Below, in pieces: positions 1,616-6,055 of a DNA stretch of 6,055 nucleotides; positions within the stretch are counted from its first letter, which is position 1, and each line of letters opens with the position of its first letter. Where the stretch lies: NCBI RefSeq assembly GCF_048403405.1, contig NZ_CP183132.1. One strand, given 5' to 3'. The DNA comes from Escherichia coli (GTDB lineage: Bacteria; Pseudomonadota; Gammaproteobacteria; Enterobacterales; Enterobacteriaceae). A program made the position numbers and the translations under genes. The notes beneath the pieces were generated by a model. The model saw only the letters and a program-made list of their open reading frames with translations, did no database searches and had not been told where the DNA came from.

Positions 1616-3170
1616 GTTTCATGCCAGGGGAAAAGGTGGTGGCAGTGGTCCGGTTGATTACCTGCTGGGAAGGGAGCGTAACCGGGAAGGGGCAACGGTG
1701 CTTCAGGGGAATCCGGAAGAGGTCCGGGAACTCATCGATGCCACGCCATTTGCGAAGAAATACACGTCAGGTGTTCTGTCGTTCGCGGAGAAGGAGCTGC
1801 CGCCTGGAGGGCGTGAAAAAGTGATGGCGAGCTTTGAGCGTGTACTGATGCCCGGTCTCGAGAAAAATCAGTACAGCATCCTGTGGGTGGAGCACCAGGA
1901 CAAGGGACGGCTTGAGCTGAATTTTGTCATTCCGAACATGGAGCTACAGACCGGAAAACGCCTCCAGCCGTACTACGACCGGGCAGACAGGCCGAGAATT
2001 GATGCCTGGCAGACGCTGGTGAATCACCATTACGGTCTGCATGACCCCAACGCCCCGGAGAACCGCCGGACGCTGACCCTTCCTGATAACCTGCCGGAAA
2101 CGAAACAGGCGCTTGCTGAGGGCGTCACACGCGGGATAGACGCGCTTTACCATGCCGGAGAGATAAAAGGCCGTCAGGATGTGATTCAGGCGCTCACAGA
2201 GGCGGGGCTTGAAGTGGTCAGGGTGACGCGAAGCAGTATCAGCATTGCAGACCCGAACGGCGGGAGGAATATCAGACTGAAAGGAGCGTTTTATGAGCAA
2301 TCTTTTACAGACGGGCGCGGAGTTCGAGAAAAAGCTGAAAGAGAGAGCCGAATCTACAGAGAAAATGCTGAACGACGAGTTCAGGAAGCTCGAAGAATCT
2401 GTAAACAGGGAACTGACCTCAAACGAATCTTTAATCAGGAACGCTATCAACGACCATACAACAGCCCTGAAAGAACTGCTGGAGAGGTATCAGAAAACGA
2501 CCGTCGATACGATGGACGCGCACTGGAAAACCGTACTGAAAATGAGCGTGAAACGCTGGCTGTGGCTGATTATCGTCTCAGTACTGATGTTTGCCACGAC
2601 CGGGAGTCTGCTGTGGTACCAGGGCATGAAGATAAACGCGAATATGAATATTCTCCGCGAGCAGAAAGAGAGTCTGGAGAAGCTGAACGCGAAGACATGG
2701 GGCGTGCGTTATCACGAGGACAGCAACGGACGTTTTCTGGTGTTGCCGAAGGGGATGAAAGCCGAAACGAACTGGACGAAGGACAACGGCAAACTGAACG
2801 CAGTGAGACTGGTGCAGGAGTGACAGAGCATGACGGAGCTGGAAAGACATTTGCTGAACGCATTAGAGCAACTGCAACAGGACTATATGCAGCGGCTGAA
2901 CGAATGGGAGAACGCCTTCGTGGAATTGCAGAAAATGTTTTCGCTTACGCAACGGGACAACGCGATGCTGAACGGGCGAGTCATGCAGTTGAGTCAGCAG
3001 GTGCAGCACTTGAGCGAGCGGACAGAACGCTTGAGCCAGTTATACAGCGAGAACAGGAGATAAGGGATGAACGGCTGATGCAGGAACGCGAACATGAGTT
3101 ATCTCTGGAGCGGGAGCGTCAGCCGGAAATCCAGGAGCGGACACTGGATGGCCCTTCGCTGGGATGGTGA
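1605..3170 (+). CDS. mbeA: MbeA relaxase (MOB-HEN family), 521 aa
   Basis: N-terminus MIVKFHARGKGGGSGPVDYLLG... contains the catalytic Tyr19 and the HEN motif (H97, E104, N106 in ...WVEHQDKGRLELNFVIPN...) described for ColE1 MbeA. SD agggggcg lies 5-6 nt upstream of ATG 1605. The longer 537-aa ORF from 1557 is an upstream extension running through the end of mbeC. Confidence 0.9.
   Translation: MIVKFHARGKGGGSGPVDYLLGRERNREGATVLQGNPEEVRELIDATPFAKKYTSGVLSFAEKELPPGGREKVMASFERVLMPGLEKNQYSILWVEHQDKGRLELNFVIPNMELQTGKRLQPYYDRADRPRIDAWQTLVNHHYGLHDPNAPENRRTLTLPDNLPETKQALAEGVTRGIDALYHAGEIKGRQDVIQALTEAGLEVVRVTRSSISIADPNGGRNIRLKGAFYEQSFTDGRGVREKAERESRIYRENAERRVQEARRICKQGTDLKRIFNQERYQRPYNSPERTAGEVSENDRRYDGRALENRTENERETLAVADYRLSTDVCHDRESAVVPGHEDKREYEYSPRAERESGEAEREDMGRALSRGQQRTFSGVAEGDESRNELDEGQRQTERSETGAGVTEHDGAGKTFAERIRATATGLYAAAERMGERLRGIAENVFAYATGQRDAERASHAVESAGAALERADRTLEPVIQREQEIRDERLMQEREHELSLERERQPEIQERTLDGPSLGW
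2293..2823 (+). CDS. mbeB: MbeB mobilization protein (176 aa), nested in a different frame inside mbeA
   Basis: ORF with a good SD (aaggag, 6 nt upstream of ATG 2293) and one hydrophobic segment (WLWLIIVSVLMFATTGSLLWY). The nested position inside mbeA matches the ColE1 mbe operon. Confidence 0.8.
   Translation: MSNLLQTGAEFEKKLKERAESTEKMLNDEFRKLEESVNRELTSNESLIRNAINDHTTALKELLERYQKTTVDTMDAHWKTVLKMSVKRWLWLIIVSVLMFATTGSLLWYQGMKINANMNILREQKESLEKLNAKTWGVRYHEDSNGRFLVLPKGMKAETNWTKDNGKLNAVRLVQE
2830..3063 (+). CDS. mbeD: MbeD mobilization/entry-exclusion protein (77 aa), nested inside the 3' part of mbeA
   Basis: ORF immediately after mbeB, with SD aggag about 9 nt upstream of ATG 2830; its position matches mbeD of the ColE1 family. 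Product inferred from gene order and overlap, not from recalled protein sequence. Confidence 0.65.
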   Translation: MTELERHLLNALEQLQQDYMQRLNEWENAFVELQKMFSLTQRDNAMLNGRVMQLSQQVQHLSERTERLSQLYSENRR

Positions 3171-3232
3171 AACCATGAAAAATGACGTGTTCAGTGGATT
3201 AAGGCGGGCTAATGTGGCCTGTAGCATCTGGT

Positions 3233-3250
3233 TGCATAGGTATTCATGCG
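3233..3250. promoter_or_regulatory. Putative ArgR box within the cer accessory region
   Basis: TGCATAGGTATTCATG resembles the ARG-box consensus (TNTGAAT-4W-ATTCANA) with mismatches and lies about 100 bp upstream of the XerC arm, the expected position in cer-type sites. Confidence 0.4.
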
Positions 3251-3346
3251 GTTAAAATTTATCAGGTGCGATCGCGGCAGTTTTTCGGGTGGTTTGTTGC
3301 CATTTTTACCTGTCTGCTGCCGTGATCGCACCGAACGCGTTTTGGC

Positions 3347-3375
3347 GGTGCGTACAATGCGACGTTATGGTAAAT
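3347..3375 (+). other. XerC/XerD recombination core: GGTGCGTACAA (XerC arm) - TGCGACG (central region) - TTATGGTAAAT (XerD arm)
   Basis: Seen in sequence. Both 11-bp arms are identical to those I recall for ColE1 cer; the central region is different and 7 bp long here. Confidence 0.75.
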
Positions 3376-3465
3376 GGAGCGGATTTTCAGGAAGGAGTGA
3401 TACTAACAACTCGAACACTGTGCAAATAATGATTTTTTTAAAATATCGGTAACGATAATAAATTA

Positions 3466-3503
3466 TTTCGTTTTACGCCGGTAATAAATATAATGTAGTT
3501 TCA
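3466..3503 (+). promoter_or_regulatory. Candidate sigma70 promoter for the cargo operon (-10 TATAAT at 3489-3494; weak -35; AT-rich upstream)
   Basis: A perfect TATAAT hexamer lies about 50 nt upstream of ATG 3544 in an AT-rich tract (taataaattatttcgttttacgccggtaataaatataatg). No good -35 at 17-bp spacing; a second TATATA at 3505-3510 is also possible. Confidence 0.3.
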
Positions 3504-3543
3504 GTATATAAAAAAATATATGAGGTGTCTTGTGGGAGCTTTC

Positions 3544-4596
3544 ATGAATCTTCAACAACGTATAAATAAACTACCACAATTATCATCCAGTTTTTCATTT
3601 GGAAAAGATATTGATAATATTCATTCATTTATCTTTAACGAAACTTCTAAAGATAAAATTGAAGATTTACTAAGAAAATGGGTGTCAGGCAATCAGCCCT
3701 GTGTATTTGGTAAATTGGCAAGCAAGAAAATTAAAGGGCTTGATTTCCATTTATCTATTGTAAATAGCCCCCAACTATATAATGATGATGGTCATTTGTT
3801 TGATTTTTTGCGTAATGAAAGAGTTCGTTTTAAAGAACGCGCAAGAAGAGGAGAGGTCAGTGCGCATCTCATTTATTTTATTCATCCACAACTTGCCTTT
3901 GCTCGTCCATCAGAAGAGTTAGTGGACATACAAAAATATATTTGTTCGCTGCATATGCCAGAGTGCTATCCAATAAAAGAGGATGTTATTTATACTGAAA
4001 GCGTACCATTTCAGGATAAAGATGGGCTAAAAATATATAAGGCTGGTGTTAATGTTTTTTACTCTTCTGCTCATAGAACAAGAAATCATGATAGAAGAAT
4101 ACCAGGGGGAATACTTATTTCTGTAAATGCCCCGGGGCATTTTATGAGGCTGGCGATAGAAAAAGGTTTCTATAAAGATCAAGAACAAGCGTTAGCGGAT
4201 ATTCGTAACATGACTATTCAGTCTGTTGGTAAGGGTGGGTATTCACATCCGGAAGGGATTTCTACAACATGGCATTCAGAATCTAATTTGGATCGTTTTG
4301 GATGCCCAGTGCACACCGGTAATAGTTCTTATTACAGCGGTTTTTATCATACTGATGTATTAATTCCAGGAGAATTAACTAAGGATGAAAGATTGCTCCA
4401 TGAAATAGAAAATAGTGATCCAATGATCTTCAACTGGAATGTATTGTTTTATGTTTCATTAGAAGAGTTTCCTATAGATGATCCTTATTATGGAGAGTTT
4501 ATTGGTATTCCTGTAGATGATGCATCTATGTTTTTTAACTCCTTTCAACCAAGGAAATTTGAAAACAAACCCCTTTATGAGAAAGAGGATGATTAA
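3544..4596 (+). CDS. Hypothetical soluble protein, 350 aa, family not recognised (first gene of the AT-rich cargo operon)
   Basis: Long ORF (track 3520-4596) in AT-rich DNA. ATG 3544 is preferred over ATG 3520 because of the SD gggag 5 nt upstream. No signal peptide or hydrophobic helices evident. Conserved-looking segments include NAPGHFMRLAIEKGFY and DRFGCPVHTGNSSYYSGFYHTDVLIPGE. Confidence 0.75.
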   Translation: MNLQQRINKLPQLSSSFSFGKDIDNIHSFIFNETSKDKIEDLLRKWVSGNQPCVFGKLASKKIKGLDFHLSIVNSPQLYNDDGHLFDFLRNERVRFKERARRGEVSAHLIYFIHPQLAFARPSEELVDIQKYICSLHMPECYPIKEDVIYTESVPFQDKDGLKIYKAGVNVFYSSAHRTRNHDRRIPGGILISVNAPGHFMRLAIEKGFYKDQEQALADIRNMTIQSVGKGGYSHPEGISTTWHSESNLDRFGCPVHTGNSSYYSGFYHTDVLIPGELTKDERLLHEIENSDPMIFNWNVLFYVSLEEFPIDDPYYGEFIGIPVDDASMFFNSFQPRKFENKPLYEKEDD

Positions 4597-4597
4597 T

Positions 4598-5464
4598 ATG
4601 ATTAAAGGAATGCTTTTTGCTTTTTTAGCAGCGTTCTCATGGGGGGCAGCTATCGTAATGAGCAAAAAAGGAGTTGAAGAACTAGATGCCGGAGGGGTGT
4701 TTTTCTGGCAGATTTGTAGTGCAGTAATACTATCTTGGATAGTTCTTTTTATAAAAAGAAAAAAACTCCCATTAAACTCAAAAGCGATACTTGCTTATGC
4801 GACAGGCGTTTTTGAACCATTCTTAGCGTATACTTTTACACTCTACGGACTTTATTTTATTTCAGCAGGAAGCGCATCAATTATTTTTTCACTTGAATCA
4901 GTGTTTATATTGGTGTTGTCTGTTCTTATTTGCTCAGTTAAAATTAATTCCCCGCAATATTTTATATTGTTCCTTATAGGTGCAATTGTTGGCAGTATTT
5001 TGGTAGCCTTGCCAGACATCAGTAATGGATCGAATAATATTGTTGGATATTGTCTTGTTGTTGCCGGTGTGTTATCGGCAGCATTTTATGTTGTTATATC
5101 GTCTCGCCTTATTAAATCGTTTGAGCCTATCACATTATTGAGCGGACAGTTGACATTCTCCCTTATACTGTCATCGCTCTTTATTTTTATATCTAAATCA
5201 TCAATTTATCTTCCGTTGGAATCCGTGATTATTGTTTTTTCATCTGGAATATTACAATATTTTTTAGCTTTTTGTTTTTACTTGAACTCCTTGCGTTGGC
5301 TCCCAGTTCATTTGGCAGGGATAATGTTGTACTTTATTCCGCTAGTTGCATTATTTTTGTCATGGTTGTTTTTGGATGAACAATTCACATTCTTACAGGG
5401 GGTAGGATTTATTGTAACTGTGCTAAGTGTATATTTTCTTAACAGAAAATACTCAGAGGAGTAA
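4598..5464 (+). CDS. DMT-superfamily (EamA-like) integral membrane transporter, 288 aa, about 10 predicted TM helices
   Basis: About ten hydrophobic segments of 18-23 residues in a 5+5 arrangement, with an N-terminal LFAFLAAFSWGAAIVMSKKG typical of EamA-domain proteins. Start ATG 4598 has SD aagagga 8 nt upstream and lies 2 nt after the stop of the upstream gene; the track ORF from 4517 is an N-terminal over-extension. Confidence 0.8.
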   Translation: MIKGMLFAFLAAFSWGAAIVMSKKGVEELDAGGVFFWQICSAVILSWIVLFIKRKKLPLNSKAILAYATGVFEPFLAYTFTLYGLYFISAGSASIIFSLESVFILVLSVLICSVKINSPQYFILFLIGAIVGSILVALPDISNGSNNIVGYCLVVAGVLSAAFYVVISSRLIKSFEPITLLSGQLTFSLILSSLFIFISKSSIYLPLESVIIVFSSGILQYFLAFCFYLNSLRWLPVHLAGIMLYFIPLVALFLSWLFLDEQFTFLQGVGFIVTVLSVYFLNRKYSEE

Positions 5465-5633
5465 CATTCTGTTCAGGATTGCCCCCCGGCCTCCATCGAT
5501 ACCGTGCCAAATGCACGTAAAAAACGGGAGCGTTTCTGGTGTCGGAATGTAACCAAGGGGGTCAGAGGCGCGCTAAAACGCTCTCAGGGGAGTCAAATAG
5601 AGACGTTTGTAACAAAAAGATCAAAGGATCCTC

Positions 5634-5662
5634 TTGAGATCCTTTTTTTCTGCGCGTAATCT
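5634..5662 (+). promoter_or_regulatory. RNA II promoter, second copy of 3-31 in the terminal overlap
   Basis: Identical sequence at offset 5631. This copy shows the true context on the circle: the promoter lies about 170 bp downstream of the cargo transporter gene. Confidence 0.6.
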
Positions 5663-5668
5663 GCTGCC

Positions 5669-5775
5669 TGTAAACGAAAAAACCGCCTTGCAGGGCGGTT
5701 TGATCGAAGGTTAAGTCAGCTTGCAGACTGCTTAACCAGGTAACTGTCTTATGCGAGACGAGTCACCAAAATTGT
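5669..5775 (-). ncRNA. RNAI: RNA I, second copy of 38-144 in the terminal overlap
   Basis: Identical sequence at offset 5631. Confidence 0.7.
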
Positions 5776-6055
5776 TCTTCTAGTGTAGCCGCACTCCGGC
5801 AGCCACTTCAAGTACTCTCTAAATATCTCGCACATGACTTTTACCAATGGCTGCTGCCAGTGGCGCTTTGTGGTGTCTTTTCCGGGTTGGACCCAAGAGA
5901 ACAGTTACCGGAGAAGGCGCAGCAGTCGGGCTGAACGGGGGGTTCCTGCATACAGCCCAGCCCGGAGCGAACTGCCTAAGTCGCCCCGAGATACCAGAAG
6001 ACGTGAGCTATGAGAAAGCGCCACGTGTCCCGTAAGGGAGAAAGGCGGAAAAGGT
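5670..6055 (+). ncRNA. RNAII: RNA II, 5' part, second copy of 39-424 truncated by the window end
   Basis: Identical sequence at offset 5631. Confidence 0.65.

Follow-up and report, generated by a model that had tools for sequence, protein, structure and literature searches.

The closest described relatives of the site reported here are cer of ColE1 and nmr of NTP16, in which 11-bp XerC- and XerD-binding arms lie on either side of a short central region. The ColE1 cer core (NC_001371, 3909–3938) reads GGTGCGTACAA TTAAGGGA TTATGGTAAAT, with an 8-bp central region, and the core of NTP16 nmr (NC_002090, 2320–2348), a characterised 29-bp site, reads GGTGCGCGTAA TGAGACG TTATGGTAAAT; nmr is listed as 'previously characterised' by Fournes et al. 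2025 (PMC11724359). Phased A-T tracts have been described in cer, and the site is as a rule oriented like RNAII in ColE1-like plasmids (PMC2831885); the ColE1 promoter Pcer is reported to have a 15-bp spacer (PMC5935869). E. coli dif and pSC101 psi have the same 11-N-11 architecture and both begin GGTGCG, with 6-bp spacers (TGTATA and GATCCA, respectively) and the XerD arm TTATGTTAAAT or TTATGTTAAAC; dif is FtsK-dependent and has no accessory sequence, and psi has an ArcA-type accessory sequence. Accessory-dependent recombination works at sites of 28, 29 and 30 bp, with FtsK dependence restricted to those of 28 bp (Fournes et al. 2025, PMC11724359).

The stretch of Escherichia coli DNA analysed here (6,055 nucleotides, referred to as the window) represents a circle of 5,631 bp that continues beyond its own starting point, such that positions 1–300 are repeated at 5632–5931. 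Positions 3140–3440 are 100% identical to many plasmids in PLSDB, including pJJ1886_3 (NC_022662) and pVR50D (NZ_CP011138), and the window plasmid is a ColE1-type mobilisable plasmid of the pJJ1886_3 / pVR50D type. This is a very common small plasmid of E. coli, Salmonella and Klebsiella, carried for example by the ST131 strain JJ1886. The genes in its RefSeq annotation code for Rop, a MobC-family protein, MbeA, a hypothetical protein and a DMT transporter, and Pfam confirms MobC and the relaxase, together with nested MbeB and MbeD; no recombinase of its own was found among the encoded genes. The replication and nested mobilisation features are as follows.

43–143 and 5674–5774, minus strand: RNAI, in two copies as the window wraps (Rfam gathering-threshold scan).
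2293–2823, in another frame nested inside mbeA: mbeB (Pfam MbeB_N, E = 1e-18).
2830–3063, in another frame nested inside mbeA: mbeD (Pfam MbeD_MobD, E = 4e-34).

We note that mbeB and mbeD are annotated in ColE1 and absent from the RefSeq annotation of the window plasmid. The minus-strand position of RNAI places RNAII on the plus strand. The XerCD site at 3347–3375, the subject of this report, carries no annotation in the RefSeq records of the plasmid; its parts, all on the plus strand, are listed below.

3150–3346, plus strand: accessory sequence, the putative ArgR/PepA binding region (left limit approximate).
3232–3258, plus strand: candidate Pcer promoter, with −35 TTGCAT (3232–3237), a 15-bp spacer and −10 TAAAAT (3253–3258), conserved in ColE1.
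3233–3247, plus strand: ArgR box TGCATAGGTATTCAT, identical to the ColE1 cer box marked by Fournes et al.
3265–3332, plus strand: Rcd-like hairpin, from an RNA fold of 3264–3345.
3347–3357, plus strand: XerC-binding arm GGTGCGTACAA, the same as the XerC arm of ColE1 cer (NC_001371 at 3909).
3358–3364, plus strand: central (strand-exchange) region TGCGACG, 7 bp, one base away from the TGAGACG of NTP16 nmr.
3365–3375, plus strand: XerD-binding arm TTATGGTAAAT, the same in cer, nmr, parB (CloDF13), ColA, ColE3 and mwr.

The 29-mer at 3347–3375, GGTGCGTACAATGCGACGTTATGGTAAAT, parses on the plus strand as 11 + 7 + 11 bp (GGTGCGTACAA-TGCGACG-TTATGGTAAAT), as the initial annotation had described, and the naming of the site there as a cer-like XerCD core is well founded: both arms are those of ColE1 cer, with an ArgR box at −114 and an accessory sequence 93% identical to that of cer. 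The cer, dif and psi references it had used agree with the database records (NC_001371 and the table of Fournes et al.), including the 8-bp ColE1 centre, TTAAGGGA, which differs from TGCGACG. A search of the window with GGTGCGTACAA-N6-8-TTATGGTAAAT gives this one match, and the pattern occurs in 0 of 200 dinucleotide-preserving shuffles; the XerD arm, present in a single copy, is weaker evidence by itself, as 32 of 200 shuffles hold a match with at most one mismatch. No second Xer site was found on the window plasmid. The core is not a chance match: it has an ArgR box at the canonical offset, and over the 116 bp upstream its identity to ColE1 cer is 93%. The XerC arm is on the side of the accessory sequence, as in all characterised cer-type sites.

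Placed beside the described classes, the site is of the cer family, and its two halves have different likenesses. With 11-bp XerC and XerD arms it falls within the range of 6–8 bp that defines the central region in PMC11724359, but it departs from the strict ColE1 cer form, whose centre is the 8-bp TTAAGGGA: TGCGACG has 7 bp, leaves a 1-bp gap in the alignment with ColE1 and has only its first T in common with the cer spacer. A 7-bp centre of the TGNGNCG type adjoining TTATGGTAAAT is the mark of the 29-bp nmr class, and this the site has; it differs from nmr by a single substitution in the spacer, and the two also agree in the XerD arm and in the ArgR box at −114. The nmr XerC arm GGTGCGCGTAA, however, differs from that of the window at 3 of 11 positions, and the nmr accessory sequence, which belongs to another family, is 58% identical. 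The site is thus a mosaic, with a cer-type left half and an nmr-like spacer. It is not of the dif/psi type (6-bp centre, XerD arm TTATGTTAAA(T/C), FtsK or ArcA control), because it has a 7-bp spacer, G rather than T at position 6 of the XerD arm, and an ArgR-type accessory sequence.

Three catalogued plasmids carry a 29-mer identical to that of the window. The first, pJJ1886_3 (NC_022662, xrs 2821), is the same plasmid; in the second, pECO29 (NC_001537), the identical core is on an NTP16-type accessory sequence (84% identical to NTP16, 58% to the window), and the paper on this plasmid does not discuss its cer site; the third, pETEC_5 (NC_009791), has a cer-type accessory sequence like that of the window and a different cargo. 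The xrs of pAPEC-O78-3 (NZ_CP010318) shares the spacer and XerD arm and has a cer-type accessory sequence 87% identical to the window's, but its XerC arm is GGTACGCGCAA.

The initial annotation had raised the possibility that the divergent 7-bp central region sets this site functionally apart. We find no support for this proposal, as the spacer belongs to a large natural class, nmr is characterised and one base away, and sites of all three lengths are reported to recombine; the 7-bp spacer is a common variant and not a new kind of site. The window site, its class and its plasmid are already known: the exact 29-mer is listed among the 185 unique Xer sites of Fournes et al. 2025 (PMC11724359), where NC_022662 (5,631 bp) is given an ArgR-type xrs at 2821 (−1) as a computational prediction. 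This entry is the window site, whose minus-strand match maps to 2821–2849. By our own count the list contains 13 sites of 30 bp and about 27 of 29 bp, the remainder being of 28 bp. We found nothing specific in the literature on direct experiments with E. coli plasmid sites whose centre is 7 bp long, and no experiment on the exact site of the window.

A scan of GTDB species genomes for GGTRCNNNNAA-N6-8-TTATGGTAAAT returned at least 120 matches; about half of those listed are chance matches in unrelated genomes without an ArgR box and are left out of the counts. Among the matches listed, 58 count as ArgR-type sites, an ArgR-like box standing at the canonical offset; their spacers are of 6 bp in 33, 7 bp in 21 and 8 bp in 4, such that the textbook 8-bp cer spacer is a minority form and 6-bp and 7-bp spacers prevail among the ArgR-type sites surveyed. 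TGCGACG is the commonest 7-bp spacer and the second commonest overall (8 of the 58 among the matches listed), where it occurs with six different XerC arms; related 7-bp spacers in the sample include TGCGGCG, TGAGGCG and TGGGACG. The exact 31-nt site is carried by 154 plasmids in PLSDB, which differ in size, cargo and genus (Escherichia 117, Salmonella 18, Klebsiella 11, Shigella 3, uncultured 5). It is also present in 123 of 5,426 complete E. coli genomes, plasmid-borne every time, and 399 of the same genomes carry the canonical cer core; were the two cores distributed independently, about 9 of these genomes would be expected to carry both. Enterobacterial cer-type sites with ArgR boxes, including the exact window site, are also seen on tiny contigs of unrelated assemblies from Gram-positive and other taxa (Streptococcus parasanguinis, Corynebacterium frankenforstense, Streptomyces, Cutibacterium and Microbacterium); these most likely stem from contaminating small ColE1-type plasmids.

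The accessory sequence resembles that of ColE1. On its left it runs into the 3′ end of mbeA (stop at 3170), and its position downstream of the mbe genes, the candidate Pcer/Rcd region and the orientation relative to RNAII all match ColE1 cer, as does the ArgR box. Identity to ColE1 cer is 93% over −116 to −1 and 89% over about 290 bp, comprising 260 bp upstream with the end of mbeA and the core; the cer family is characterised by about 180 bp of such homologous accessory sequence, which is found here. T-tracts can be read near 3281, 3293 and 3303. The site lies in the direction of RNAII on a small ColE1-type replicon with Rop and mbe genes, again as expected of the cer family, and the Rcd-like hairpin has the same direction.

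Within this region, TTGCAT and TAAAAT are the hexamers we would choose for a Pcer-like promoter. The consensus promoter and terminator scan does not list it, as the scanner needs spacers of 16–18 bp, and no terminator is reported. The RNA predicted downstream folds into a hairpin with a 17-bp outer stem (−43.3 kcal/mol, z = −6.8; 0 of 200 shuffles fold as well), and relative to ColE1 one U-A pair has become C-G by a double change that retains the pair. A putative Rcd RNA of about 70 nt would end near the T-run at 3340–3343, and the size of the hairpin is consistent with the Rcd of about 70 nt reported previously. No consensus structure was obtained by RNAalifold from 57 unique accessory sequences of diverse sites, and the Rcd-like hairpin is therefore claimed for the cer-type subgroup only. 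At the Rfam gathering threshold, RNAI is the only hit in the window and no family reaches threshold at the site.

The ArgR box starts at −114 relative to the XerC arm, on the canonical side and at the canonical distance for the cer family, and all 21 of the sampled 7-bp sites have the same offset. In 28 of 33 sites with a 6-bp spacer the offset is −115, in ColE1, with 8 bp, it is −113, and in the other 8-bp sites it is −114, that is 133 bp to the XerD arm; these counts ignore the relatedness of the sites. We note that the XerD arm begins about 132 bp after the first base of the box almost regardless of spacer length, a near-constancy which suggests that the geometry is anchored on the XerD side.

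On this anatomy, 3347–3375 is very probably a multimer (dimer) resolution site of the cer family, in its 29-bp class, and its most likely function is XerCD dimer resolution dependent on ArgR and PepA. Following the cer paradigm, we infer binding, strand-exchange order, Rcd expression and resolution activity by analogy. Host XerC would bind GGTGCGTACAA and XerD TTATGGTAAAT, ArgR would bind the box 114 bp upstream, and PepA would bind the flanking accessory DNA. ArgR and PepA would interwrap the two directly repeated sites of a dimer, confining recombination to one molecule. XerC would probably be the recombinase that makes the first exchange, of the top strands, at the junction of the XerC arm and the spacer, to give a Holliday junction; this would be completed to monomers either by XerD or, as at cer, independently of Xer. 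The Pcer-like promoter and the Rcd-like hairpin would probably provide a cell-division checkpoint, with Rcd expressed from dimers. The two sites of a dimer carry the same spacer, whose sequence therefore has no bearing on resolution. Such a site would account for the plasmid staying monomeric and stable.

Cer-type sites tolerate little change in geometry, which would favour the view that the core is decayed or hybrid, an inactive relic that hitchhikes with the backbone or is kept for the Rcd accessory region. Some ArgR-type sites are apparently inactive in the pPCP plasmids of Yersinia (Fournes et al. 2025, PMC11724359). Yet both arms are perfect consensus, and the 29-mer is invariant in the 154 plasmids of E. 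coli, Salmonella, Klebsiella and Shigella with their differing cargos. The strict −114 offset of the box in the 7-bp class suggests selection on geometry, and this small multicopy plasmid, which has no second Xer site and whose genes include no recombinase, lacks any other evident means of resolution. An inactive relic is thus extremely unlikely, and we retain dimer resolution as the reading of the site.

The site also marks the point at which the conserved mob-cer backbone gives way to a variable, AT-rich cargo. Just past the XerD arm the GC content drops from about 50% to 28–38%, and the sequence to the right of the arm has no relation to ColE1 (where exc genes occupy this place), NTP16, pECO29 or pETEC_5. 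The cargo module begins directly after the XerD arm and contains two genes, as follows.

3376–5470: AT-rich cargo module.
3544–4596, in the cargo: 350-aa open reading frame, preceding the EamA/DMT transporter gene.
4598–5464, in the cargo: EamA/DMT transporter gene, following the 350-aa open reading frame.

The 350-aa protein has no match in Pfam, NCBIfam or PDB sequences, and we note that it and the EamA/DMT transporter form an uncharacterised gene pair on a very common clinical E. coli plasmid. Beside the identical core, pECO29 carries Eco29kI restriction-modification and pETEC_5 a DUF3800 protein.

The ends of alignments between plasmids show where the backbone and cargo part company. Of the 1,094 PLSDB matches to 3140–3440, an evenly spread sample of 60 was examined: 23 right ends are at 3358, which takes in the XerC arm and the first spacer base, 26 are at 3375–3378, the outer end of the XerD arm, and 9 alignments continue. 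On the left, the ends are grouped at the ArgR box or reach into mbeA, and the homology of many plasmids begins only at about 3229–3234 and proceeds rightwards. Crossovers on the XerC side, together with an XerD arm that does not vary, would be expected to leave such a pattern if they form the backbone/cargo junction.

A Xer site as a junction of this kind has already been described (PMC7315355). The fall in GC, the identical cores beside unrelated cargos in the window, pECO29 and pETEC_5, and the clustering of ends at 3358 and 3375–3378 would all fit a site that serves mainly for cargo exchange, through rare intermolecular Xer events, and not for dimer resolution. A 2017 paper by Moran and Hall reportedly concerns the same junction idea, to judge by its title. 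Cargo exchange is, however, compatible with resolution, as a by-product of the same chemistry, and alignments would be expected to break just past the XerD arm anyway, the arm being invariant in all such sites. Moreover, the ArgR box, the phased T-tracts and the putative Rcd would enforce selectivity for resolution, and cargo capture alone would not keep them. We therefore judge it very unlikely that cargo exchange is the main role of the site, and prefer dimer resolution.

What the 7-bp spacer might do between plasmids is a separate matter. For tyrosine recombinases, spacer homology matters in strand swapping, and the first base (T) of the spacer alone is common with cer; a shorter, heterologous spacer could, as the initial annotation also suggested, block or strongly reduce Xer exchange with 8-bp cer, averting cointegrates or hybrids with co-resident ColE1-type plasmids. 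Such plasmids do meet: strain VR50 carries both pVR50C, a ColK-type plasmid with a TTAAGGGA core and an accessory sequence 89% identical, and pVR50D, which is the window plasmid, and in strain JJ1886 it is accompanied by pJJ1886_2, whose 6-bp core is of the ColE3 type. In pSCU-124-3 (NZ_CP051709.1, 12,301 bp, colicin E1), the window plasmid and ColE1 are fused head to tail, the 7-bp site (3535–3563) and cer (10193–10222) being in direct repeat and both in their parental contexts, with the junctions of the fusion within the shared mob/rop backbone. If the spacer does insulate, several ColE1-type plasmids with near-identical accessory sequences could coexist in strains such as VR50 and SCU-124 with neither fusions nor hybrids arising through Xer.

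Against insulation, the restriction of accessory-dependent sites to intramolecular recombination, established for cer, leaves little intermolecular exchange to prevent. The occurrence of TGCGACG with six XerC arms among the matches listed, and of the identical core with two unrelated accessory families, points to repeated exchange around the core; the 23 of 60 sampled alignments that stop at the junction of XerC arm and spacer are what is expected of XerC-side crossovers between heterologous sites, and natural mosaics of this sort oppose a strong barrier. A 1995 paper is said, by its title, to treat recombination between cer and nmr in vivo. We thus consider an insulating role of the spacer unlikely. 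A bolder form, in which spacer classes of 6, 7 and 8 bp would be 'recombination incompatibility groups' with the 7-bp class orthogonal to cer, or in which the 7-bp geometry would let XerD finish the exchange, unlike at cer, is more doubtful still. Dimer resolution, for which the spacer need only match its own copy, remains the preferred reading.

The fusion plasmid pSCU-124-3 was considered as natural evidence that the 7-bp site does not cross-react with cer and was rejected as such, given its backbone junctions, its linear flag and the deposition of a homodimer of the window plasmid as well. The homodimer, NZ_CP146562.1 in PLSDB (11,262 bp), is a perfect 2 × 5,631 repeat with two copies of the site; as Xer should resolve it, assembly artefacts are plausible among deposited multimers, and pSCU-124-3 may be either a real cointegrate or such an artefact. 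We also note that CP082392.1 (14,501 bp) matches the 301-bp query 3140–3440 at three places; this record and NZ_CP146562.1 are either plasmid multimers or duplications from long-read assembly.

Several minor features lie near the core or resemble it. A promoter-like CTAACA, 16 bp, AATAAT at 3403–3430, 28 bp past the XerD arm, is directed towards the cargo genes; it matches the consensus only, and such matches are no more numerous in this region than in shuffles. The 20 or so bp to the right of the XerD arm (3376–3395), GGAGCGGATTTTCAGGAAGG, resemble the ColE3-type right flank of pJJ1886_2, GGATCGGGTTTTCGGGAAGG (L128, 1069–1088, minus strand), and a weaker resemblance over about 60 bp extends into pAPEC-O78-3. 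A second 7-bp cer-type site, GGTGCGTACAA TAAGGGA TTATGGTAAAT, is found in two of the surveyed loci (L012 and L098), where its spacer is the cer spacer minus one T and its accessory sequence is almost identical to that of the window; a similar loss of one T is mentioned for plasmid P6 (PMC7315355).
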